The notes beneath the pieces were generated by a model. It was given only the letters and a program-made list of their open reading frames with translations. It was not told the DNA's origin and searched no databases. Shown in pieces: positions 214 to 13,119 of a stretch of 14,365 nucleotides of DNA. Each line of letters opens with the position of its first letter. Within the stretch, counting starts at the first letter, position 1. The position numbers and the translations under genes were made by a program. The DNA is from a virus (lineage: Duplodnaviria; Heunggongvirae; Uroviricota; Caudoviricetes), in the IMG/VR virus record IMGVR_UViG_3300037420_000666. One strand, given 5' to 3'.

Positions 214-1407
214 TCAGCTCGCTTTGCGCGTGGCTTGAGGGGTCTGCATTGCCGCTTCCAGGCGGCGCATCTCGCGCGCATCGGCATCGCCTTCAAGCCA
301 TCGGCTGTAGGTCGCCAGGAACTCTTTGACCGAGTGCCCCAGCTGCTTGGCGCCGAATGCCGGGTTTACGCCGGCCATGAGCAGCTGCGTCGCGTAGGTG
401 TGGCGCAGGTTGTACGGCTGGCGGTACCGGATGCCCAGGCGAGCGAGGGTGCGCTTCCACCAGCGCAGCAGGTTGAGGTCGCTCCCCCATGCCTCGCCGG
501 TCGGCCTGGTCCACACGAAGCCCCCGGCGATCTGGCTATGCGCACGCTGCCGCTGCAGTGCCGCCATGGCGCGGCTGTTGAGCAGCACCTGCCGCGGCGC
601 CCCTGTCTTTGTGCTGTCCCTGTGCTTGCCGCGGATCACGGTCTCATGCACCAGGGCGCGGCCGGATGCCAGATCAATTGATGGCCACTGCAGGCCGATC
701 AGCTCGCCCGTGCGCATGCCGGTGAAGCCCCAGAACTCGAAGACGTTCCATACCGACTCCGGGTAGTGCTGCCGCATTTCGTCGAGGATCGCCTCCAGCT
801 CCTCGGGTGTGAACGGGTCCGGGTCCTGCCTGCGCGCCTTCTGGGCTTTGATCGTGGCCGTGACGTCCTCGGGCATGAGCTTGTCCACCACGGCGGCGCG
901 CACCGCTTGGCGCAGCACCATCAGGTATTTGGTCTGCGAGCGAGGAGCGAGGTCCGGGTGCGCGGCAAGCGCGTGATTGAGGCTGCCGGCCTTCAGGTCC
1001 ACAAGCAGCTGGTCGCCCAGCTTGCGCCCCTTGTCGTCGCACGGCGCCGCCTTCCAGAAGCGGGCTGCGGCGGCGTAGCCGGCGCGGGTGGTGGGCTGCA
1101 CGCGTTGCGCGGCTAGCCAGTTGTCGAGGTGCTTGGAGAGCGTCAGGCCTTCGGCCGCCGCGGCCTCGCTGGGGAAGTAGCGCCCCAGGTCGAAGCGGCC
1201 CAGCTCGATGTCGCGGCGGATCTCGGCCGCCAGGCGCTCGGCGTACTTGATGGCGGCCGGCGTGGGCTGCACCGGCGCGCCATCGGCCTTCAGGGTGTAG
1301 CGGTGCTGGACTCCGCCGACCGTAAACGAGAGACGGATGCTGCGCTCCCGGACTTCAACCCCCGACCCCTTGCGACCCACTTCATCACCCCCTGCAAATC
1401 GACCCAC
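214..1407 (-). CDS. int: Phage tyrosine integrase (site-specific recombinase)
   Basis: 397-aa ORF. N-terminal arm-binding-type region (GRKGSGVEVRERSIRLSF) and C-terminal catalytic region (RHTYATQLLMAGVNPAFGAKQLGHSVKEFLATYSRWL) are typical of lambda-family integrases. The annotated start at 1407 is GTG with no Shine-Dalgarno; an in-frame GTG at 1380 preceded by AGGGGG is a likelier start. Position at the end of a leftward operon next to an Xis-like gene fits. Confidence 0.9.
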   Translation of the reverse strand: MGRFAGGDEVGRKGSGVEVRERSIRLSFTVGGVQHRYTLKADGAPVQPTPAAIKYAERLAAEIRRDIELGRFDLGRYFPSEAAAAEGLTLSKHLDNWLAAQRVQPTTRAGYAAAARFWKAAPCDDKGRKLGDQLLVDLKAGSLNHALAAHPDLAPRSQTKYLMVLRQAVRAAVVDKLMPEDVTATIKAQKARRQDPDPFTPEELEAILDEMRQHYPESVWNVFEFWGFTGMRTGELIGLQWPSIDLASGRALVHETVIRGKHRDSTKTGAPRQVLLNSRAMAALQRQRAHSQIAGGFVWTRPTGEAWGSDLNLLRWWKRTLARLGIRYRQPYNLRHTYATQLLMAGVNPAFGAKQLGHSVKEFLATYSRWLEGDADAREMRRLEAAMQTPQATRKAS

Positions 1408-1640: not shown

Positions 1641-2558
1641 TCAGGCGGCGTTCGCCGTTTGGCCTACGGCCGAGGCAGCGGCGCGGTCCAGGCGCTCCAA
1701 CTCAGCCAGGATCAAGGCGCCGGCCTTGACCAGCATCCGCCGCTCCGTGCCGGGCTTCCACCATTCGGGGGCCCACGGCCACAGCGTCGGCACATCGGCG
1801 CGCGGGTCGGCGTCCCCAACGCAATAGCACGCTGCTGCTGCGGCCATCTCGCCGCGCGAGTGCTCGTCGTCGTGCTCGGGCGTCCAGCCCTCGGCGCTGA
1901 CCTGGCGCGCACGCTCCGCGAGCACGTCCTGTGCGGCGGGTGTGATCGCCTGCAATGCCTCGCGGTGGGTCATCTCCCGGTCCACCGCGCGCGCAACGTC
2001 CTGCACCGATGCGCTCCAATATTCCGGCCGCATGTCGCGCGCCTTCGCTGCGCTCTCACGGGTGTTGGCCATGGCGACCACGCCGCAGGCCGCGTGACAC
2101 ATGCGCTCGCGCTCCAGCTCGGCGCGCAGCGCGCGGATCTCGTCTGCCGCCTGGATGCACGCCTCGGTGTCCAACTGGTCCCAGCAGTGGCCGCCGGCGT
2201 AGTTCGCGGCCATGGCGCGCAGGCGGGGCTCTTGGGATTCGGTGGTGACCGTAGGCGGCTGGGTCAGGGCGGCGCGGGCCTGCCATGCCTCCCAGGCATG
2301 AGCCAGCCCGCCGGCCGGCGAGTAGATGCCGTGCTTCTCGTCGCGGAAGGCGAACCCTGCGCGGATCGCCCAGCCCTCGAACGCTGCGCGCTCGTCCGGC
2401 TGCGCCCCGCTGGCGGCGGGCTGGGCCAGGGCCGCGCGCACAACTTCCATGCGTTCGCGCAGCAATGCGTAGTTGCCGCCGTGCGGCGTGCCGTCGATCG
2501 TTGCCAGCGCGTCGCTGGCGGCAGTGCGCAGGTCGGGCACGGTGGTGTTGGTGTTCAT
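1641..2558 (-). CDS. Ea22-like phage protein with C-terminal DUF550-type domain (recalled as dATP/dGTP pyrophosphohydrolase-like)
   Basis: Start set at internal ATG 2558 (MNTNTTVPDL...) with GGAG upstream; the longer frame begins at GTG and overlaps the upstream gene by about 210 nt. C-terminus WTPEHDDEHSRGEMAAAAACYC...WPWAPEWWKPGTERRMLVKAGALILAELERLDR matches my memory of the DUF550 signature found in lambda Ea22-like proteins. Sits where ea22 sits in lambda, between xis and the recombination genes. Confidence 0.65.
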   Translation of the reverse strand: MNTNTTVPDLRTAASDALATIDGTPHGGNYALLRERMEVVRAALAQPAASGAQPDERAAFEGWAIRAGFAFRDEKHGIYSPAGGLAHAWEAWQARAALTQPPTVTTESQEPRLRAMAANYAGGHCWDQLDTEACIQAADEIRALRAELERERMCHAACGVVAMANTRESAAKARDMRPEYWSASVQDVARAVDREMTHREALQAITPAAQDVLAERARQVSAEGWTPEHDDEHSRGEMAAAAACYCVGDADPRADVPTLWPWAPEWWKPGTERRMLVKAGALILAELERLDRAAASAVGQTANAA

Positions 2559-3926: not shown

Positions 3927-4592
3927 TCAGTGCACCCTCTTGAACTCCATGACCCACACCCACGGGTTCGCGCCCCATGAGCCGGCGCCGTTGATCTGCT
4001 CCCACAGCAGGCGATAGCCGCCCACGTAGTCGACCTCGGCCTCGTAGTGCGCGGCCATGCCGATGCGCTGCGCCGCGGCCTGTGCCTGACGGCTGCGCTC
4101 GGTCTGGTGCGTCGGGCACTTGCTCCACTCGACGCCTTCGGCGATGGCCTCGGCCCTGCTGCAGTCCTGCAGCCGCTCCACGCGCACGCTGGTCAGTTCC
4201 AGCGTGATGCGCGATGCCCAGCGGGGCATGTGGATCGAGGGGCGCCAAAACTCCATCGTGTCGCCCTCGTCCGCCGCGTAAATCACAGCAGAGCCGTCAG
4301 GGCGGCGCGACGGTATGTGGCGGTACACGTCATAACCACGCTCAAAGGCCTGCCACGTCTCGCGCACCCACAGTCGGTCGCCGGGTCGGCCGTAGGGACA
4401 CAGTTCGGCGGCCGCCTTCGGTCGCACCCACGACGGATCTGCAGGTTGCAGGCAGGCTGCCAGGCCCGGAGTGCGGTGCGTGATCTTCACGGCGCGCCGC
4501 GTCTGCGTCTTGGTGCCAGCCAGCAGCGCCCGCACCATCGGCGCGCTGAAGAGGATGGGGCGCTCGCGCGCCGCAGTGGTTGCGGCGCTCAT
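3927..4592 (-). CDS. Conserved phage protein, tentatively ASCH/PUA-like
   Basis: 221-aa ORF with ATG start and GAGG upstream. N-terminal ILFSAPMVRALLAGTKTQTRR resembles the ASCH G-x-K-x-x-x-R strand motif; assignment is from memory and tentative. Its start overlaps the stop of the upstream gene (4590-4596). Confidence 0.6.
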   Translation of the reverse strand: MSAATTAARERPILFSAPMVRALLAGTKTQTRRAVKITHRTPGLAACLQPADPSWVRPKAAAELCPYGRPGDRLWVRETWQAFERGYDVYRHIPSRRPDGSAVIYAADEGDTMEFWRPSIHMPRWASRITLELTSVRVERLQDCSRAEAIAEGVEWSKCPTHQTERSRQAQAAAQRIGMAAHYEAEVDYVGGYRLLWEQINGAGSWGANPWVWVMEFKRVH

Positions 4593-4593
4593 C

Positions 4594-5211
4594 TCAGTGC
4601 CTCGCCTCGCTGGTGGCGATGAACGCGTCCGTCGCGTCCATCACGGGCGCCTCGTCGTCGAGCAGGTCGGCTTGCTCGGGGTGGTCGGCGTCGAACGCGG
4701 CCTTGCTGCCGTCGATGGCCTCTTGCTTGGGCACCGGCGGCGTGAGCGTGATCACGATGCCCTGGCCGTTCTTCTTCCACAGCATCCCGGCCGCTTCTTC
4801 GTCCAGCTCGCTGGTGCCCACCCGGAAGCTCAGGTCCACGCTGCCGCCTTCGCACGGGTGGACCTTGAAGCCGTCCACCTTGCACGTGCCCAGGCGGATC
4901 GCGCTGCCGTCGTCGATGCCGTGGGCCACGGTGACGGCCCAGCCCTCGAAGCTGCGCTCCAGGCTCAGCGAGCCGATGCCCTGGGCGCGCAGCAGCGGCG
5001 TGGACTCCTCGATGCCGTCGAGCTGCGGCTGACCGTCTGCAGCCTTGTAGAGGGACATGCGCAGGCCCGGGGCCAGCGTGTCGAGGATCGTGTTCGGCGC
5101 GGTGATCGTGATGCCCAAGCTGACGGCGGGCACGCGCTCGTCGCCGTGCATCTCGGTGCGACCGGTGAAGCTGGTCAGCTTGGCCTGGGTGTCGGTGAGT
5201 TGGAACTGCAT
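4594..5211 (-). CDS. Hypothetical phage protein with acidic C-terminal tail
   Basis: 205-aa ORF, ATG at 5211 preceded by AGGAAA. No family recognised. C-terminal DADHPEQADLLDDEAPVMDATDAFI is strongly acidic. Stop is 1 nt from the next start. Confidence 0.7.
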   Translation of the reverse strand: MQFQLTDTQAKLTSFTGRTEMHGDERVPAVSLGITITAPNTILDTLAPGLRMSLYKAADGQPQLDGIEESTPLLRAQGIGSLSLERSFEGWAVTVAHGIDDGSAIRLGTCKVDGFKVHPCEGGSVDLSFRVGTSELDEEAAGMLWKKNGQGIVITLTPPVPKQEAIDGSKAAFDADHPEQADLLDDEAPVMDATDAFIATSEARH

Positions 5212-5245: not shown

Positions 5246-5566
5246 TCAGTACGGAACGGCCTCGGCCTCGATGCCGGCCGGCGTCTTGCCGCACTTGCAC
5301 GCTCCGCAGCCGGCGCACTTCTCGGCCAGGGCCTGGGCGTGCGCCTCTTCGGCGGCGATCTGCGCCACGGTCTCAGCGGGCAGGCCCAGGCGCTCGGCGG
5401 CGCGCTGGATTGCGTGGTCGGTGTTGCCGTGCACCTGGCGCATGGTCTCGACGGTGCTGGCTACGGTCGCGCGGGAAACGATGGGATCGGGCATATCGGT
5501 CTCGGTTGTGGTCATGCGGTGCCGGGCGCTGGCCCGGCGGGTTTTGAACTTGGAGCGGTGGGGCAT
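5246..5566 (-). CDS. Hypothetical small Cys-rich protein
   Basis: 106-aa ORF whose ATG overlaps the stop of the upstream gene (TGATG at 5564-5568). GC-rich third codon positions through the N-terminal extension. C-terminal cluster CAGCGACKCGK may bind metal. Internal ATG at 5515 is an alternative start. Confidence 0.5.
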   Translation of the reverse strand: MPHRSKFKTRRASARHRMTTTETDMPDPIVSRATVASTVETMRQVHGNTDHAIQRAAERLGLPAETVAQIAAEEAHAQALAEKCAGCGACKCGKTPAGIEAEAVPY

Positions 5567-6783
5567 CAGGCCGGCACGGCCTTGGCGGCACCCTCGGCCT
5601 CGGCGATGGCGGCGCGGGCCTCGACCATCTCGGGCGCGTGCTCGATCAGACCCTCTTCGTCGCTGTCGGCCATCGACGTCACCAGGGCGCGCAGCGCCTT
5701 CAGCAGCCGCGGGGCCGCATCGCGCAGGCGCTTGTCGGCTGCGGCGCGGGCTTCTTCCTCGCGCTGGCGGGCCGCGGCGGCTTCACGGGCCACGCGCTGC
5801 GCCTCGGCCAGCTCGGCGGCGGCCTTGCGCTCCTCGGCTTCGCGCGCCTCCCGTGCAATGCGGTCGGCCTCGGCGCGGGCTGCGGCGGCCTGGCGCTCTT
5901 GCTCGGCGAGGGCTTCGCGCTGGCGGCGCATCTCCGCTTCGTGGGCCTCGCGCTCGGCGCGCAGCTTCGCCTCGTGCTCGGCCCGCTCCTTGTCGCGCTT
6001 CAGGGCCGCAGCGATCTCCTCGGCCTCGCGCTGCTCGCGAGCCTTGCGCTCTTCCTCGGCGCGCGCGGCGGCGGCCTCCTCGTCGCGCTTCTTCTGCTCG
6101 GCGCGCAGCTTGGCCAGCTCGGCGCGCTCCGCGGCGAGGCGGGCGGCTTCGGCTTCGCGCTCCACCGCGGCAGCGTGCATGTCGCGCAGCTGCTTCAGCG
6201 TGTCGGCCTTTGCCTCCTCGGCCTTGCCGCGGTACTCCTCGAAGTCGTCGCCGATGGCAAGCGCCTCGATGTCCGCGATGTGCTGGGCGATCTGCTCGGC
6301 GGTGCAGCGCAGGGACGCCACCACGATGGCCTCGATGTCGTTGGCGATGCGGTCCTGGTGCGCCTTCACGCGCGCCGCCTCGGCCGCGGCCTTCGCCTGC
6401 TTCTCGGCTTCCTTGCGCTGCTCCTCAGCCTTGATCTGGGCGTCGTAGTGCTCTTCGCCAGCCAGCAGCTTCGCAGTGAGCTCGCCGGCAAAGCTGTCGA
6501 TGGCCTTGCCCAGGGCGAGCACCGGGGCCTTGGCGTCCTTGCGGGCCTTCTCGACAGCCAGGCGCGGCGTGCGCCAAGCGGCTCGGGCGGCGATGGCCGA
6601 CTTCATGCCGGCGGTGGTGCTGATCTCGGCGATCAGCACGTCCTTGGGGTGCTGCTTCTCCAGCTCGGCCAGGCCCGCGGCGATCTTGTCGAAGGCGCCC
6701 ACGTGCGTTTGCACGGTGGCGATGTTGGAGGCGATGCCGGCGACAGCGGCGGCGGCGGTGGTTTCTTGAGCGACGGTTTCCAT
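5566..6783 (-). CDS. Phage protein with a long E/R/K/A-rich charged helical repeat region
   Basis: Start set at ATG 6783 (METVAQETT...); the longer frame starts at GTG 6867 with no RBS and overlaps the exonuclease gene. The central ~200 aa are a near-continuous run of A/E/R/K (for example AEAARLAAERAELAKLRAEQKKRDEEAAAARAEEERKAREQREAEE), predicted coiled coil or single alpha helix. Confidence 0.7.
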   Translation of the reverse strand: METVAQETTAAAAVAGIASNIATVQTHVGAFDKIAAGLAELEKQHPKDVLIAEISTTAGMKSAIAARAAWRTPRLAVEKARKDAKAPVLALGKAIDSFAGELTAKLLAGEEHYDAQIKAEEQRKEAEKQAKAAAEAARVKAHQDRIANDIEAIVVASLRCTAEQIAQHIADIEALAIGDDFEEYRGKAEEAKADTLKQLRDMHAAAVEREAEAARLAAERAELAKLRAEQKKRDEEAAAARAEEERKAREQREAEEIAAALKRDKERAEHEAKLRAEREAHEAEMRRQREALAEQERQAAAARAEADRIAREAREAEERKAAAELAEAQRVAREAAAARQREEEARAAADKRLRDAAPRLLKALRALVTSMADSDEEGLIEHAPEMVEARAAIAEAEGAAKAVPA

Positions 6784-6811
6784 GTCCGTTTTCTCGGTCT
6801 GAAATGAGGGG

Positions 6812-7480
6812 TCAGGCGGCCAGCGGCATCGGGCGGCGCAGGGCGGCCTCGTGCTGGTCCACCACACGGCGGAAGTCCATCAGGTCGGACTCCAGGGCTT
6901 CGATTGCGTCGTCATCGCGGCGGATGCGCTGGATGAACAGGCTCTTGCCCACCGGTTCCAGCCAGGGGCAGAACACCACTAGGTCGCACCAGGCGCGGCC
7001 GGTGATCCAGAGTCCGCCCAGGATCTGGTCGCGGTACTCGTCGGCCGCGTGGGCCGGGTCCGTCCAGATCAGGCCCAGCTTGTCGCAAGCGGCCGGGCAC
7101 TTGATCTCGACCATGCCCACATCGCCCACGAAGCCGTCCGTGCTGTAGCCGAAGGCGCCGTCGTCGGTGAAGACGATGCCGGCCTCCATGGCCAGCGAGC
7201 CGGTGTGCTGCTCGTAGGCCTCGCGCGCTGCGGGCTCCAGCTCGGTGCCGCGCTTCATGGCCCACGTGACGAAGGTGTCATCCAGCGACGTGCCGCTGAT
7301 GCGCTCCATGGCCAGGGTCCATGCGTACTTGATGGCCTCGCTGCTGGGGTCGCCCGCCTTGCGGTCGCCGCTGGCGCGCTTCAGCTTCGAGCGGGCATCA
7401 CTGAAGCGGCTGGCGGTGATCACGCCGGCGCGCGCGGCCAGCCATTCCTGCGTGCCCTGTTGGACTTGAAGGAAGCGCAT
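6812..7480 (-). CDS. YqaJ-like viral recombinase-associated exonuclease (lambda Exo functional analogue)
   Basis: N-terminal QQGTQEWLAARAGVITASRFSDA is the hallmark YqaJ/PD-(D/E)XK exonuclease opening. ATG at 7480 lies 4 nt after the RecT stop, the classic RecT-exonuclease pair. Confidence 0.9.
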   Translation of the reverse strand: MRFLQVQQGTQEWLAARAGVITASRFSDARSKLKRASGDRKAGDPSSEAIKYAWTLAMERISGTSLDDTFVTWAMKRGTELEPAAREAYEQHTGSLAMEAGIVFTDDGAFGYSTDGFVGDVGMVEIKCPAACDKLGLIWTDPAHAADEYRDQILGGLWITGRAWCDLVVFCPWLEPVGKSLFIQRIRRDDDAIEALESDLMDFRRVVDQHEAALRRPMPLAA

Positions 7481-7483
7481 GGC

Positions 7484-8491
7484 TCAGGCCTCCAGCGCTT
7501 CGCCGCGCACCGCGATCAGCTTCTCCAGCCGCGTGCGCTCCTCGCCCTCGGGCAGCGTGGCCACGTCGTCGCCGATGAGCAACAACACCTGGGCGTCGCT
7601 GCAGCTGCCGATGCGCTGCTCCAACGCCACCACGTCCAGGCCCGGGGCAGCATCGGCGGCCGGCATGTCCACGGTGCGCGCAGCGTCGGCGTCGATCGCG
7701 GCTTGCTTCAGGCGCGGGTGGTGCTCGGCGAGGTGCTTGCGGTTGGCCGGGCCGGTGGACTTCCAGAATTCCTGGTACGCGGCCACGCCCTCGGCGGCGG
7801 CGTTCTCGGCGGCCTCCAGCAGGCCGGCGGGCATCTGCGGTGCTTCGGGCGCCTGCGGCTGCACGGTGTTGGCCGGGCCCATGTTCTTGGGTGGCGCGAT
7901 CTGCTCCAGCTCGTCGGGCGTGTAGATGCCCAGGATGGCGCCAGGCGTGTAGAGGCGGGCCCAGTTCTTGGCCTGCAGATATCCAAGCTGCTGTTTCGGG
8001 TTCGTCTTCCACAGCGGCGAATTCCTGGTCGTGACCGACTTCATGCACAGCCACTCGCCCCAGGTGATCTCCTGCTCGCCACGCAGCACCGCGCCCGCGC
8101 GGCACTCGACGGCTTCGCCGGTGCCCTTGAACTCGTACTTGAACGTGCCGTGGATCGCGCCGCTGGCCTGCACCACCGCGATGACCAGTTGCGCCTCGTA
8201 GCCCAGCGTGCCGTTGACCACGTGCGTCTTCTGGGCCACGGCGTAGGGGTTCATGCGCCACTGCGCGGCCTGCATCGCCACCGCCAGGCAGTCGCCCGTC
8301 TTGCCCTGCAGGTGCTTGGGCACGGTGATGGTGGCCTTGGCCATCTCCTGGGCCACCACGGCCAGGGCGTTCATGGTGGTGGCGTCCATCAGCAGGTCCA
8401 GCGCGCCAACGCGCGTCGGGCCTGCGGCCATGGCGGGCTGCTGCTCGATGGGGGCGGCCAGGGCCAGCGGTTGTTCGGTCATCGTGTTCAT
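7484..8491 (-). CDS. recT: RecT-family single-strand annealing protein
   Basis: 335-aa ORF. Motifs VPKHLQGKTGDCLAVAMQAAQWRMNPY...THVVNGTLGYEAQL...ECRAGAVLRGEQEITWGEWLCMKS fit the RecT/Red-beta family. ATG at 8491 preceded by GAGGA. Immediately upstream of the YqaJ exonuclease. Confidence 0.9.
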   Translation of the reverse strand: MNTMTEQPLALAAPIEQQPAMAAGPTRVGALDLLMDATTMNALAVVAQEMAKATITVPKHLQGKTGDCLAVAMQAAQWRMNPYAVAQKTHVVNGTLGYEAQLVIAVVQASGAIHGTFKYEFKGTGEAVECRAGAVLRGEQEITWGEWLCMKSVTTRNSPLWKTNPKQQLGYLQAKNWARLYTPGAILGIYTPDELEQIAPPKNMGPANTVQPQAPEAPQMPAGLLEAAENAAAEGVAAYQEFWKSTGPANRKHLAEHHPRLKQAAIDADAARTVDMPAADAAPGLDVVALEQRIGSCSDAQVLLLIGDDVATLPEGEERTRLEKLIAVRGEALEA

Positions 8492-9363: not shown

Positions 9364-9866
9364 GCCGCGAGCCTCGACTGGTAGGCGTCGATCGCCGCAT
9401 CCGTCTTGGCCGCCTCGCACTCCAGGCGGTAGTCGCGCTCGCACGCGGCTTGCCACAGCTCGGCCGTCCTCGTGTCGATCAGGTCGGCGTCCAGGCCGTT
9501 CACGCGCTCCAGGATCACCAGCGGGCTCACGCGGCCGCTGGGGTCCTCGTCGGTCTCAATGCGGTACTGCAGCAGCACCGGGCGAATGCCGGCCTGCATG
9601 GTGCAGGTGTAGACGCCGCGCTCTTTGGAGGCGCCCAGGTACTGCTCCAGGTTGCTGATCTCGCGACACAGCGCGTGCACGTGGCCACGCAGGTTGCTCG
9701 CCTCGATGCGCGAGGCGCACAGCTCGCGGCGCAGCAGGCGCTCGGCGTCGGTGCGGCTCGTGAGGTCGTCGCCGTTCTCGGCGGCGCGGGCCTCGCCGAG
9801 CTGGGCGCACGTCGCGGCGATGCGCTCGGCGCGGTCCTGGGGGCGGGTGGTGGCGATGGCGGCCAT
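9360..9866 (-). CDS. Hypothetical phage early protein
   Basis: 168 aa from ATG 9866 (the track's first M at 9869 is GTG). Start overlaps the upstream stop (TGATG). No family recognised. Confidence 0.65.
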   Translation of the reverse strand: MAAIATTRPQDRAERIAATCAQLGEARAAENGDDLTSRTDAERLLRRELCASRIEASNLRGHVHALCREISNLEQYLGASKERGVYTCTMQAGIRPVLLQYRIETDEDPSGRVSPLVILERVNGLDADLIDTRTAELWQAACERDYRLECEAAKTDAAIDAYQSRLAA

Positions 9867-10513
9867 CACTTGCCCTCCGCTGCGGCGCCGTCATCCATCG
9901 GGTCGAAGACGCTGCCGTACATCGCGCGGTGCATCTCGTTCGCGGCAGCAAACGGACTCCCTCCCGTTTCGCGCTGCTCCATGGCGATTGCCATGATGTC
10001 CATGCCCTTGATCTGCTCGCGCAGCGCTTGCACCTCTGCATTCAGCCGTTGGATCTCCGCGTCGCGCGGGTCCGCCTGCGCCACCGTGCCGCCGCCTTGC
10101 ACCTCCGCTGCAGCGATGGCCTTGTCCAGATCGTCGCGGGCGCCGTTCCGGCTGCTCAGCAGGGAGAAGTAGTTCGGAGCGTTGGGGCCCTGCAGCTCGC
10201 GGTTGTCCAGCGCGTCCTGTGCGTCCAGGAAGTCGGTCAGCGCCGCCACCACGTTCAGCAGCTCGTCGCGCTGCTCGCGCAACTTCTGCGCCTCGGCAGC
10301 CAGTGCCGGCGCAGACGCCACCAATTGCGCTCTCGCTTCATCCGCCGCGTCGTCTGCGCCGTCGCTGTGGCACATGAAGCAGACGGTGGTGTCGGCGTCG
10401 CGCATGACGTGGCGGCTCCACTGCATGTATGGGCGCGGGTCGCGCTCAATGAACCAGCGTTCTTGCTGGACTGCCTGCGCCGTCCCGGCGCTGGTGTTGG
10501 TTTGGTCGGCCAT
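9866..10513 (-). CDS. Hypothetical phage early protein
   Basis: 215 aa, ATG at 10513, 4 nt after the upstream stop. Has a CxxC-like pair (VCFMCHSDG) and an acidic, coiled-coil-like C-terminal half. No family recognised. Confidence 0.65.
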   Translation of the reverse strand: MADQTNTSAGTAQAVQQERWFIERDPRPYMQWSRHVMRDADTTVCFMCHSDGADDAADEARAQLVASAPALAAEAQKLREQRDELLNVVAALTDFLDAQDALDNRELQGPNAPNYFSLLSSRNGARDDLDKAIAAAEVQGGGTVAQADPRDAEIQRLNAEVQALREQIKGMDIMAIAMEQRETGGSPFAAANEMHRAMYGSVFDPMDDGAAAEGK

Positions 10514-11059: not shown

Positions 11060-11590
11060 TTAGTTTCGTCCGATCCAGCGGATACCAAGCCAGGCCAAGC
11101 CCGAAAGCAATGGAAGCGACAAGTTCAGGGCCAGGAACCCGTTCTCGGTAAGGTTGTAGTCCCATCTCCAGATGACACCCCAGAGCTGCACAGCAACTAC
11201 CCACAGAATGCTGGCAACAATCCAGGCGCGTGTCCGTCGCCTGCACTGCTCGCGGATCGCCTTCAAGCGCACTTCTGGCTTGGCAGCCTCAAGCACCGAC
11301 AGCAGCTTGGCGTGCCCGCCTCCATCTGCATATCGAAGGTAAGCGTCGTACTTCTTGCGCCGCTCCGGGTCTCCGAGGGTGTGCAAGGCCTGCTGAGTGA
11401 GCGCATACCGGGCGGGCGCGTCCTTGCTGCCACAGCCCGTTTTTGGGTGGTAAGTGGCGCTGAAAAAGCTGTGCGCCATTTCTATGTAGTCTTGCGTGGC
11501 ATTCGGCTGTAAATCAAGAACTCGATAGAAATCAACGATTCCATCTGCCCTTTTGAACTCGTCTAATACACGCTGCGCATCCTCGTCCAT
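11060..11590 (-). CDS. Membrane-anchored J-domain (DnaJ-like) protein with HPK in place of HPD
   Basis: 176 aa. Residues about 20-85 align along the whole J-domain pattern (DFYRVLDLQPNATQDYIEMAHSFFSATYHPKTG...ALHTLGDPERRKKYDAYL versus DnaJ DYYEILGV...YHPDRN...AYEVLTDSQKRAAYDQYG). The tripeptide is HPK (codons CAC CCA AAA, top 11441-11449). Two C-terminal hydrophobic segments (AWIVASILWVVAVQLWGVIW, FLALNLSLPLLSGLAWLGIRWI). Lower GC than the flanks; in the repressor-cargo region. Confidence 0.75.
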   Translation of the reverse strand: MDEDAQRVLDEFKRADGIVDFYRVLDLQPNATQDYIEMAHSFFSATYHPKTGCGSKDAPARYALTQQALHTLGDPERRKKYDAYLRYADGGGHAKLLSVLEAAKPEVRLKAIREQCRRRTRAWIVASILWVVAVQLWGVIWRWDYNLTENGFLALNLSLPLLSGLAWLGIRWIGRN

Positions 11591-11645
11591 ACCGCTCCCT
11601 TGTGATTATATTTAGCGAATTAACCTGAAATCAGTTTCGAATTTC

Positions 11646-11657
11646 TCGAATATTCGA
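11646..11657. promoter_or_regulatory. Perfect 12-bp palindrome TCGAATATTCGA with adjacent TTCGAA, upstream of the J-domain gene
   Basis: Located in the AT-rich 78-bp spacer between the 77-aa ORF and the J-domain gene. A perfect TATAAT (minus strand, top 11605-11610) lies 14 nt upstream of that gene's ATG. Candidate regulator-binding site and internal promoter. Confidence 0.35.
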
Positions 11658-11668
11658 TTGCGAGTGAG

Positions 11669-11902
11669 TCAGCGTATTCGCTGAGCCAATTCATCATCAA
11701 GCGCAGCTAACATCCCGCGAGCAAATGTTGGATTCCGATGGGCTTCGCCGCTGGTATTTACAACGAACCCTCGTTGTTTTGTCATTGCGGCGTATGCGAC
11801 CCCTATCACTTCGCCTCGTTCCGCTCGCTCCAGAAGGTTTCTTAAGTCGGCCACCACGTCGTGTGGGGCCTCCTCCCGAACGAGGCGAAACGGAGGCTTC
11901 AT
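11669..11902 (-). CDS. Hypothetical 77-aa protein coupled to the repressor gene
   Basis: ATG overlaps the repressor stop (ATGA at 11899-11902) and is preceded by AAGGAAA. Sequence MKPPFRLVREEAPHDVVADLRNLLERAERGEVIGVAYAAMTKQRGFVVNTSGEAHRNPTFARGMLAALDDELAQRIR; no family recognised. Lower GC than the flanks. Confidence 0.55.
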   Translation of the reverse strand: MKPPFRLVREEAPHDVVADLRNLLERAERGEVIGVAYAAMTKQRGFVVNTSGEAHRNPTFARGMLAALDDELAQRIR

Positions 11903-12744
11903 GACTTCTTTTCCTTGCCGCTTTCATCGGTACGGATGATCCGCTCCATGCCCGGCATGGGGCGGTCGCTGAAGTACTTACCGCCGGGCGGCTGTTCCTT
12001 CTGAACCGGAACAGCGCGCGCGGTGCGCCCGATCCTTTCCAAGAATCGAGGCAATTCCTCCCGTGGTTTTATTTTTCGTGCCGGCACAGGGTGCGGCACG
12101 TAATAGACCCAAGTTACTTCGGTGGGGCTGAAACTTAAAACTTCCGGCGAGTTATAACTTCCAAATCTCCACCCGCCGCGCCGGCTCAGCAGTCGCTTGA
12201 GCATAGTCGAACCATCGGCCAAGCGCACAAGAACGTCATCCTCAAGATCGGGGTCGCTGCTTGGCTCGACTAGCGCATATTCGTTTGGCATGTATTTGGG
12301 GATCATCGAATCTCCGACGACCCGGCAGACAAACGCGTAATCGTCGCTGCTGAGCACCTCGGCAAATTCGGTGGCCTCCGAAAGCCAGTTGTCATCGAAT
12401 ATCCGCTCCGGCATTCCTCCCTGGCAGGTGCCGCACACGTAGACCGGGCGGACGCTGCGCGCCGGGAGTGTCTGAGGCGGAGCACTCTCTGTCGCAACCA
12501 TGACTGACAGGCCAGCACTGACCGTGCCCGGGTAGGCCGTCAGGCCCCAATGCTCCGGCCCAACCACATTTGCAAACAGAGCCCAGAGCCCCGGCAGCTT
12601 CTCCTTCGAGATGGTTCCGCGGTTCACCCAGTCCTGGATCGTCGGCGGCTTGACCCCGAAATGCTCCGCCAGGGCTTTCTTGGTGATGCCCTTTTTTAGT
12701 CTGGCCGCCTCGATGGCTTGCCCTAGTTCGATCCCGGTAAGCAT
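11899..12744 (-). CDS. CI/LexA-like prophage repressor (N-terminal XRE-type HTH, C-terminal S24 peptidase domain)
   Basis: 281 aa. N-terminal HTH (LGQAIEAARLKKGITKKALAEHFGVKPPTIQDWVNRG) and an S24 autoproteolysis domain with Ser and Lys motifs (VVGDSMIPKYMPNEYALV ... DGSTMLKRL). Carries an unusual ~60-aa C-terminal tail. Divergent from a Cro-like gene; AGGA lies 10 nt upstream of the ATG. Confidence 0.9.
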   Translation of the reverse strand: MLTGIELGQAIEAARLKKGITKKALAEHFGVKPPTIQDWVNRGTISKEKLPGLWALFANVVGPEHWGLTAYPGTVSAGLSVMVATESAPPQTLPARSVRPVYVCGTCQGGMPERIFDDNWLSEATEFAEVLSSDDYAFVCRVVGDSMIPKYMPNEYALVEPSSDPDLEDDVLVRLADGSTMLKRLLSRRGGWRFGSYNSPEVLSFSPTEVTWVYYVPHPVPARKIKPREELPRFLERIGRTARAVPVQKEQPPGGKYFSDRPMPGMERIIRTDESGKEKKS

Positions 12745-12760
12745 CGCCTAATGGTCCTGA

Positions 12761-12813
12761 TAAGGCAGTGAGTAGGCAATTCCTTGCAGAATTGTTAGGC
12801 ATAGCCTTATCAT
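12761..12813. promoter_or_regulatory. OR-like operator/promoter region between the repressor and Cro-like genes
   Basis: Contains TGTTAGGCATAGCCTTA (12793-12809, identical to 10808-10824), an imperfect copy TAGGCAATTCCT (12773-12784) and half-site TAAGGC (12761-12766). Candidate rightward promoter: -35 TTGCAG (12784-12789), -10 TATCAT (12808-13), which places the transcript start at or next to the cro ATG (12820). Confidence 0.5.
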
Positions 12814-12819
12814 GGCGCC

Positions 12820-13119
12820 ATGAACGATCCCATCAACGACCTCGGCGGTCCGACTGCGGTGGCAAAGATGCTGTGCATCAAGGCCCCGTCCGTCGTCCAG
12901 TGGAAAGGCCGCATTCCGGCTGAACGGCGCGTGGACCTGGAGCGCGTCGCCTACCCCAAGTTCTGGGTTGAGCGCGCCGGCGACGACGTGCGCTGGCAGC
13001 GCGTGCCCGATCCCGAGTGGCCGCATCCCGATGGCCGCCCTTGTATCGACGTTGCCGCGATGCGCCCCCCGCTCCCCCAAGCCGCCGCCGCAGCTCCCCA
13101 GGCTGTGGCTGCGAGCTGA
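12820..13119 (+). CDS. Cro/YdaS-like HTH regulator
   Basis: 99 aa. DLGGPTAVAKMLCIKAPSVVQWKGRIPAERRVDLERV matches the YdaS/Cro-type HTH pattern (...QW..rG.iPaeR...iE..). Divergent from the repressor across the operator region. No Shine-Dalgarno upstream, so possibly leaderless. Confidence 0.75.
   Translation: MNDPINDLGGPTAVAKMLCIKAPSVVQWKGRIPAERRVDLERVAYPKFWVERAGDDVRWQRVPDPEWPHPDGRPCIDVAAMRPPLPQAAAAAPQAVAAS

Follow-up and report, generated by a model that had tools for sequence, protein, structure and literature searches.

A charged, predicted helical phage protein beside recombination genes has a rod that changes length in steps of eleven residues

What might be the role of a phage protein that is encoded next to recombination genes and devotes a large part of its length to alanine, glutamate, arginine and lysine? 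The question is raised by a stretch of DNA of 14,365 nt (the window, to which all DNA positions given here refer) from a virus of the Caudoviricetes (IMG/VR record IMGVR_UViG_3300037420_000666), whose GC content is about 70% and whose real genes form the minus-strand early operon of a temperate phage. One of them, the rod gene, lies directly downstream of the genes for a RecT-type single-strand annealing protein (SSAP) and a YqaJ-type exonuclease, as a first-pass annotation of the same DNA had reported. We suggest tentatively, at a little under an even chance, that its product is a non-catalytic, all-helical, elongated accessory of the phage recombination module, serving as an architectural scaffold, tether or spacer. 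We hold the structural half of this proposal, an elongated rod of helix conserved at both ends, to be considerably more probable than the composite, and the specific tether mechanism considerably less probable. The main new result, absent from the first-pass annotation, is that the rod is built on a repeat unit of eleven residues.

The charged tract had been described as an uninterrupted A/E/R/K run of about 200 residues filling the central half of the protein. An extreme tract does exist, and homologues keep it: at least 60 tract residues are present in 145 of the best 150 cluster representatives, with a median of 134. However, its length had been overstated, as it measures 154 aa when at least 90% of the residues are required to be A, E, R, K, Q or D, and 184 aa (residues 185-368) at a looser threshold of 75%; moreover, it occupies the C-terminal half of the protein (residues 204-357) and is interspersed with other residues (A 34%, E 23%, R 19%, K 6%, L 5%, Q 4.5% and D 3%, with scattered His, Ile, Val and Met). 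Charged residues make up 51% of it (E, R and K 48%, the rest D), the net charge is -3 and large hydrophobics amount to 8%. The best 100-aa segment of the rod protein is composed of A, E, R, K, Q and D for 91%, versus 37-62% in the 13 other proteins of the window, and the median longest run without Gly or Pro in the family is 142 residues (interquartile range 105-166). The whole protein has a net charge of -13, residues 57-159 being its sole net-positive segment (+4). The DNA range first assigned to the tract reached position 6450 because a separate short charged helix (residues 110-140) had been taken in; D114, Q116, I117, K118, E120, E121, R123, E125 and E127 are conserved in this helix.

The DNA of the tract had likewise been called repetitive. 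It is codon-poor, with 21 codon types and GCC, GAG and CGC accounting for 58% of the codons, but it is not tandemly repetitive: Tandem Repeats Finder (TRF) reported three small arrays only, the best having a 33-bp period, and the direct repeats are 68-80% alike, with three families (D3, D5 and D6) spaced by 33 nt. The longest exact repeat is of 16 nt, versus 7-14 nt in other 462-nt stretches.

When the tract is laid out in elevens, Arg occupies unit position 6 in 10 of 15 rows, eight of which are consecutive (residues 270-357), and Ala dominates positions 2, 3, 10 and 11. The autocorrelation of residue classes peaks at lags 11 (z 2.7) and 22 (z 2.4), and in 196 homologue tracts lag 11 is again the highest (mean z 1.8), lag 7 being flat. 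The same unit emerges from the comparison of lengths. Indeed, an alignment of close relatives contains indels of 11, 11, 11 and 22 residues; in 131 pairwise alignments (55-97% identity) 43% of the tract gaps of at least 5 residues are multiples of 11, with 46 gaps of exactly 11 residues, three of 10 and two of 12. The rod ends in an amphipathic C-terminal motif of the pattern R-x-AAP-x-L/M-L-x-AL (AAPxxLxAL), and the distance between D114 and this motif falls into clusters of 218-220, 229-231, 240-242 and 252-253 residues. Taken modulo 11, this distance is far from uniform (Rayleigh p ~1e-6 after dereplication into 26 N-domain clusters), and no significance was obtained modulo 7, 18 or 4. Rod length has thus changed in steps of 11 residues during evolution, which answers the comparison of repeat lengths among relatives that had been proposed. 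At the DNA level the unit corresponds to 33 bp, of which the TRF array at 5910-5976 and several direct repeats spaced by 33 nt are traces. The idea that the region is prone to slippage is therefore right over evolutionary time, with a 33-bp unit, but wrong as a concern about assembly.

The period recalls hendecad coiled coils, with which the rod also shares a preference of its hydrophobic residues for the a, d, e and h positions and indels that, coming in elevens, keep the register. When 57 tracts are measured back from the C-terminal motif, large hydrophobics reach 13-22% at hendecad positions 1, 4, 5 and 8 and 3-5% at positions 2, 3, 6 and 10, and Ala (38-49% at positions 2, 3, 6, 10 and 11) forms a second face; this positional contrast is strongest at period 11. 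The rod differs from a hendecad coiled coil in that its core positions carry large hydrophobics in those 13-22% of cases only.

An AlphaFold2 (AF2) model built on a 64-sequence alignment is all-helical, with helices at residues 10-44, 57-159, 162-174, 179-274, 278-372 and 383-396, a predicted local distance difference test score (pLDDT) of 82.5 and a predicted template modelling score (pTM) of 0.47; the local pLDDT exceeds 92 for residues 120-250 and falls below 50 at 273-275. For a natural short variant of 283 aa (P0078), with a tract of 75 aa, the corresponding scores are 90.7 and 0.61, and a single predicted helix, 178-264, is about as long as helix 57-156. This model is compatible with a long hairpin of antiparallel helices at whose far end helix 6-45 would pack. 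Conservation is seen in the first 27 residues of the tract (E212, R215, E219, R220, E222, L223 and R227 are nearly invariant) and in the stretch of helix 57-159 that faces them (D114 to E127); the tract may thus be regarded as consisting of two parts, a conserved proximal one within the predicted folded stalk and a variable distal one, the proximal part (residues 204-230) probably belonging to the return helix of the hairpin. Packing was judged from helix lengths, model confidence and conservation. Contacts based on mutual information (effective sequence number ~110) are dominated by clade markers, and the few pairs that fit antiparallel helices (143-187, 153-175, and 24/34 with 70-88) are too weak to serve as evidence; a hendecad periodicity in helix 57-159 is not significant either (best period 3.68, p ~0.13). 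Neither the single sequence nor the N-domain profile retrieved a relative among PDB sequences, and the best Foldseek match to the PDB has an E value of 0.78. Fold searches return generic long hairpins, three-helix bundles or uncharacterised phage proteins (in BFVD, the last kind only), and no enzymatic domain was found in Pfam, NCBIfam, PADLOC or PDB sequences.

Whether the tract packs in this way or stands free is the point on which the best-surviving alternative turns, namely that the whole of it is a free monomeric ER/K single alpha-helix (SAH), working as a spacer or constant-force spring and possibly binding DNA as does the KER helix of CAF-1, which also serves as a spacer and so provides a precedent (PMC10335832). 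Opposite charges at i/i+4 are enriched (z +2.6 versus shuffles), same-charge pairs at this spacing are depleted (4 versus 19 expected, z -4.4) and the class autocorrelation at lag 4 is negative (z -3.4). The tract has no 3.5-residue periodicity (51% of the shuffles reach the observed power), and in the family the mean power at 3.5 is 0.62 of the expectation and the lag-7 autocorrelation has a z of 0.4; a canonical heptad coiled coil was rejected on this basis. With the SAH domains of myosin VI, VIIa and X, INCENP and CAF-1 KER, the rod protein thus shares a pattern of opposite charges at i/i+3 and i/i+4, few large hydrophobics with no heptad seam, and a long run free of helix breakers (171 residues without Gly or Pro) between two functional ends. 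Moreover, single steps of 11 residues suit a symmetric hairpin poorly, and the break in the AF2 model at 275-277 has low confidence, contains no turn residues and falls at the exact midpoint of residues 179-372, as expected if AF2 had simply folded a long helix back on itself. On the other hand, canonical SAHs are described in the literature (PMC5347031) as more charged than this tract, where 51% of the residues are charged, 34% are Ala and Arg is far commoner than Lys. Residues 204-230 are conserved, the repeat is of 11 residues, the weakly two-faced hendecad pattern is not required of an SAH, and in the short variant the tract is modelled as one helix, with a pLDDT above 90 and the length of its partner, which suggests packing. 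On balance, a tract that is free along its whole length seems unlikely, though it is a reading to be taken seriously; the models suggest that residues 179-250 at least pack against helix 57-159. On either reading, the tract would be a stiff helical element of about 11-26 nm.

The other conserved end of the protein is its N-terminal domain, in which homologue alignments contain 16-21 invariant residues and whose most conserved segment carries a basic stripe (R67, R71, R74, R81, K82 and K85). A word-indexed search retrieved 1,197 homologues of the rod protein, and a profile of the N-domain (203 residues) matched 8,096, 4,088 and 1,360 cluster representatives (clusters at 50% identity) at E<=1e-3, 1e-10 and 1e-30, respectively; the domain is N-terminal in all of the best 150 representatives listed. 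The rod protein itself matches no family in Pfam, NCBIfam or PADLOC, and in PHROGs it matches families of unknown function alone (16469, 17928 and 1376). Neither the full protein nor residues 1-220 match Pfam DUF1351 (PF07083, gathering threshold 27.8 bits) even at E<=10. However, four homologues (P0077, P0084, P0085 and P0096) pass the gathering score over profile positions 12-120 of 210, and rod residues 21-200 align with two of them at 47% identity (P0077, 31.9 bits to PF07083; E 3e-28) and 39% identity (P0096, 34.6 bits; E 2e-30), in alignments falling outside the low-complexity tract. Since these homologues pass the Pfam threshold while the rod protein and 59 of 64 relatives do not, we assign the rod protein by transitive homology, on sequence grounds, to a divergent branch of DUF1351 from phages of Proteobacteria.

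DUF1351 is the closest known kind, and is itself uncharacterised; its Pfam model mostly misses the rod branch. The two share the similarity just described and a comparable genomic setting, since in Firmicutes phages the duf1351 gene adjoins recT/redbeta, erf or sak4 in early operons (PMC8093625). They differ in that the rod branch matches the first half of the profile only, has Proteobacteria rather than Firmicutes as hosts, and consists of proteins of about 380-400 aa with a hendecad rod of 60-220 aa. DUF1351 proteins, by comparison, are about 230 residues long in the Pfam description, and the rod of this branch is much longer. Prophages of Burkholderiales, Xanthomonadales, Halomonas and others carry relatives, as do the isolated phages Tenjo and CP2 of Xanthomonas, F116 of Pseudomonas and its kin, and VvAW1 of Vibrio; in one deposited record of a Pseudomonas phage, a relative already bears the DUF1351 label. 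Among 72,556 plasmids no homologue was found. No domain fusion was detected in the ten longest relatives, and P0188 (739 aa), considered as a fusion to YqaJ, was rejected as a frameshifted merge of two neighbouring genes, with out-of-frame stretches around short YqaJ motifs. Three long relatives (P0214, P0232 and P0137) hold a second "tip" module (GIQQQVIIAQxGxxGVRxGGTIECIRETLxET...) inside the charged region, which suggests, from the sequences, a modular duplication of stalk-tip units.

The location beside a recombination module is recurrent across genome and viral loci. Within two positions of the relatives in 28 genome loci we found YqaJ (9), ERF (6), RecT (5), DUF3799 (3), AAA_24 (2), which we take to be the Sak4-type family, and SSB (1). 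In 67 IMG/VR viral loci the immediate neighbours include YqaJ (20) and RecT (11), and the second neighbours ERF (22), YqaJ (8), RecT (7), RdgC (2) and AAA_24 (2). With local profiles, 53 of 94 loci have an SSAP within three genes (ERF 32, RecT 21), 49 have YqaJ and 67 have either; the ERF set was treated as exclusive in these SSAP counts, which are in agreement with those from Pfam. The commonest order is SSAP (-2), YqaJ (-1) and rod gene, as in the window; YqaJ is at -1 in 22 of the 94 loci and an SSAP at -2 in 27. Variations on this order also exist: in phage Tenjo the relative precedes the recombinase, exonuclease and SSB genes, F116 has it between the gene for an exonuclease and a group formed by a 3'-5' exonuclease, SSB and RdgC, and a metagenomic phage combines it with NinB and an AAA_24 ATPase. 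The type of SSAP is shared by 47-53% of the pairs with 30-60% N-domain identity, versus 51% by chance, and in one pair at 67% identity one locus has an ERF neighbour and the other RecT. The SSAP family is therefore uncorrelated with N-domain similarity (below 60% identity), so that the association is with the module and not with one SSAP family; the specific partnership with RecT that had been considered is not supported, the same family standing beside ERF, RecT, AAA_24 or RdgC.

Bringing these data together, we propose a model in which the protein would begin with a head and a stalk, both conserved (helices 10-44 and 57-159, with the tip at 160-178), continue with a return helix that has its start at residue 179 and takes in the first ~27, conserved residues of the tract, then with a variable rod of 11-residue units devoid of helix breakers, and finish with the amphipathic C-terminal motif. 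The basic N-terminal surface and this motif might bind two partners that are generic to recombination modules, such as DNA or DNA ends, the YqaJ exonuclease or a host factor like SSB, rather than a protein of one SSAP family, and the hendecad rod might set the separation of the partners while preserving the helical register. The earlier suggestion of a spacer or ruler stays live, because between its two conserved ends the protein has a rod whose length varies in quantised steps. Its strictest form, a passive, ATPase-free molecular ruler or tether that measures distance in steps of 1.65 nm (11 residues) by a straight hendecad rod whose register is under selection, is nevertheless doubtful, and we would hold it with little confidence.

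Several observations weigh against the proposal of an elongated accessory of recombination. The tertiary arrangement in the AF2 model is uncertain, as its pTM indicates, and the break at 275-277 has no residues apt to form a turn. The pattern of the C-terminal motif was detected in just 58 of 345 family sequences. The quantisation in elevens could be a by-product of 33-bp slippage instead of the outcome of selection on the register. The rod protein lies below the DUF1351 threshold, and just five of its 64 relatives match this family at E<=0.01. Lastly, genes that adjoin in a compact early operon give weak evidence of a physical partnership, some long contigs have no annotated recombination gene near the relative, and 27 of the 94 loci lack a recognised SSAP or YqaJ within three genes. 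These loci would suit an early function unrelated to recombination, such as host take-over, interference with cell division or the nucleoid, or anti-defence, the operon being merely shared; early operons are mosaic, and the 106-aa open reading frame (ORF) downstream of the rod gene is not conserved alongside it. Yet the immediate adjacency to YqaJ and the SSAP is frequent, the association recurs in Proteobacteria and Firmicutes with at least four kinds of recombination protein, and no PADLOC match was obtained, so that we consider an unrelated function improbable.

A further possibility is that the protein is a functional analogue of Gam, protecting linear DNA ends or inhibiting a host nuclease such as RecBCD on behalf of RecT and YqaJ. 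RecT/exonuclease modules commonly need a third function of this type, and the rod protein would suit it in being all-alpha, elongated, net acidic (-13) and independent of the SSAP family. Moreover, the slot beside SSAP genes occupied by duf1351 is filled elsewhere by gam, gp157 (Sipho_Gp157) or DUF2483 (PMC8093625), whose products are small, non-enzymatic and helical. However, Pfam, PHROGs and PDB searches brought up neither a sequence nor a fold match to lambda Gam, Mu Gam or a solved inhibitor, and the rod protein is likewise unrelated in sequence and fold to Gp157 and DUF2483; the tract is almost neutral (-3) and hence not a DNA mimic. At one homologue locus (L047, 7216-7713) a Sipho_Gp157 gene shares the operon with a relative that passes the DUF1351 threshold, which speaks against treating Gp157 and the rod family as interchangeable alternatives. 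Known nuclease inhibitors are also far smaller than 405 aa. A Gam-type role therefore appears quite improbable.

The membrane tether of TolA type also raised by the first-pass annotation can be set aside as having a negligible probability: the Ala/Glu/Lys/Arg-rich helical composition does resemble TolA domain II, and five homologues (P0030, P0048, P0049, P0063 and P0117) are labelled "colicin import membrane protein" in their source (JGI), but there is no transmembrane segment (the maximum 19-aa Kyte-Doolittle mean is 1.13, at residues 10-28), no TolA domain, including C-terminal domain III, in Pfam or NCBIfam and no sequence relative in the PDB, the N-termini of the homologues are polar, so that the N-terminal anchor of TolA has no counterpart, and the gene is phage-borne, in an early operon of cytoplasmic DNA metabolism. 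Other homologues are labelled "SbcCD ATPase subunit", a label arising from the same composition, and both misleading labels are best explained in this way. Plasmid proteins of KfrA type, which have an N-terminal DNA-binding head and a long alpha-helical coiled-coil tail (PMC7821693 and PMC7783346), are similar in combining head and tail and in being encoded by mobile elements. They differ in that no KfrA_N match (PF11740) was found in the rod protein or its 64 relatives, and in the absence of homologues from the plasmids searched. SAH domains, TolA domain II, KfrA and hendecad coiled coils are thus resemblances and not memberships.

Finally, the rod gene is real, and the reading of the region as an artefact (GC-rich DNA that does not code, a frame wrongly chosen or a repeat wrongly assembled), which might be invited by long ORFs arising in several frames at ~70% GC and by the low codon diversity of the tract, is refuted: the 1218-nt coding sequence is identical base for base in four contigs, each of a different sample (two of them JGI metagenomes, two Logan assemblies), the longest exact repeat and the few TRF arrays leave little room for misassembly by slippage, thousands of homologues with conserved motifs exist at the protein level, and the GC content at codon positions 1, 2 and 3 (0.80/0.48/0.90) is like that of RecT and the exonuclease and has this coding profile in the frame of the rod gene only. 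The codon statistics that had been called for as a check thus point to a coding frame, and the concern about assembly errors can be dropped. In addition, the identical 405-aa product is called on eight contigs, the N-termini of the homologues align to M1, and the ATG lies 28 nt past the stop of the exonuclease gene. Three ORFs of 369-389 aa on the opposite (+) strand (5271-6434, 5339-6448 and 5638-6807) have a non-coding GC distribution by codon position; such shadow ORFs are a hazard for automatic gene callers in the GC-rich tract.

Table 1. Positions of the rod gene, of the parts of its product and of the neighbouring genes (residue numbers refer to the rod protein).
Feature	Position	Strand	Remarks
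Rod gene, whole	5566..6783	-	405 codons + TGA at 5566-5568; ATG 6781-6783
N-terminal helical domain, conserved, residues 1-203, putatively distantly DUF1351-like	6175..6783	-	Predicted helices 10-44, 57-159, 162-174
Most conserved segment, residues 56-100, TTxGMKxAxxxRxxxRxPRxxxExxRKxxKAPxLxLGKxID	6484..6618	-	Invariant or nearly invariant columns in two alignments
First short charged helix, residues ~110-140, inside conserved helix 57-159	6364..6456	-	Composition scan
Predicted hairpin tip, residues 160-178: small helix and sole Gly-containing turn before the tract	6250..6306	-	AF2, rod protein and P0078
Run of 171 residues (187-357) without Gly, Pro, Ser or Asn	5713..6225	-	
A/E/R/K tract proper, residues 204-357, 154 aa	5713..6174	-	90% AERKQD
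Proximal conserved part of the tract, residues 204-230: AAAVEREAEAARLAAERAELAKLRAEQ	6094..6174	-	Nearly invariant residues; high pLDDT
Distal variable rod, residues 231-357, degenerate 11-residue units	5713..6093	-	Register table, autocorrelation, indels
Sole unit-sized tandem array, 33-bp period, 2.0 copies, 82% matches	5910..5976	.	TRF
C-terminal motif RDAAPRLLKAL, residues 354-364, ends the rod	5692..5724	-	A357, L361, L364 invariant in close homologues
C-terminal region, residues 358-405, short predicted helix 383-396, family-variable	5569..5712	-	AF2; alignment
YqaJ-type exonuclease, directly upstream of rod gene	6812..7480	-	Pfam YqaJ 8.6e-17; phrog_149 4e-34
RecT-type single-strand annealing protein (SSAP)	7484..8491	-	Pfam RecT 2.1e-23; phrog_561 1.7e-81
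Several small ORFs			Between repressor and RecT in the operon listing
CI-like S24 repressor	11899-12744		Operon member
Cro-like gene	12820-13119		Opposite strand to the CI-like repressor
106-aa ORF downstream of rod gene	5246..5566	-	ATG overlaps rod-gene TGA (TGATG)
205-aa protein of no named family, acidic C-terminal tail	4594-5211	-	
221-aa ORF, phrog_874 protein	3927-4592	-	
DndC-like PAPS-reductase, 438 aa	2573-3889	-	PF01507 7e-9; phrog_12882 2e-234; PADLOC DndC 1e-30
305-aa ORF	1641-2558	-	Matches none
Integrase	214-1407		

As for the surrounding operon (Table 1), no internal promoter or minus-strand terminator was found between RecT and the downstream genes, and a search of the window for tRNAs gave none. 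The TGATG overlap suggests that translation of the 106-aa ORF, which carries a Cys-rich CAGCGACKCGK motif, may be coupled to that of the rod gene; tblastn gave no match to this ORF in any of 125 related loci, and a conserved partnership between the two was rejected. The 205-aa protein has homologues close to relatives of the rod protein at 10 further loci; of its 59 homologues, five have an H-NS DNA-binding domain (PF00816) at the C-terminus, so that it is probably DNA-associated. The DndC-like gene, whose product scores well under the TIGR03183 cut-off, is located between the integrase and the recombination genes, with the phrog_874 protein and the 305-aa ORF on either side, and may form with them a phage DNA-modification module. 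Upstream, a coiled-coil-like early protein of 215 aa (9866-10513, minus strand) matches SbcC-like, SMC-related and LmuB models weakly and below threshold, and a J-domain (DnaJ) protein (11060-11590, minus strand) with a hydrophobic C-terminal segment (19-aa Kyte-Doolittle mean 2.11) is encoded beside the CI-like repressor. Across the immunity region (~11200-12800) the GC content is 0.50-0.61, versus ~0.70 elsewhere in the window, which suggests a mosaic origin of this segment. In the 45-kb JGI contig Ga0395908_0000467 (15512-19108) lysis genes (Peptidase_M15_3 and holin) directly follow the integrase, so that the contig looks like an excised or circularly permuted phage genome and not an integrated prophage.

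What these findings mean depends on the role of the rod protein. If it were a neutral passenger, its description would still correct the two misleading labels given to its homologues. Phage SSAP/exonuclease pairs underlie recombineering and often work poorly outside their native hosts; a very common accessory gene, represented by at least 1,360 protein clusters (50% identity), accompanies modules of RecT, ERF and Sak4 type in Proteobacteria and Firmicutes, and the rod gene is an obvious candidate for the missing helper function. If the ruler model were true, the rod protein would be an unrecognised third component needed by RecT/ERF-YqaJ systems in their native hosts. In any case, a quantised rod between conserved ends offers a clean natural system for studying selection on the length and phase of a charged helix.

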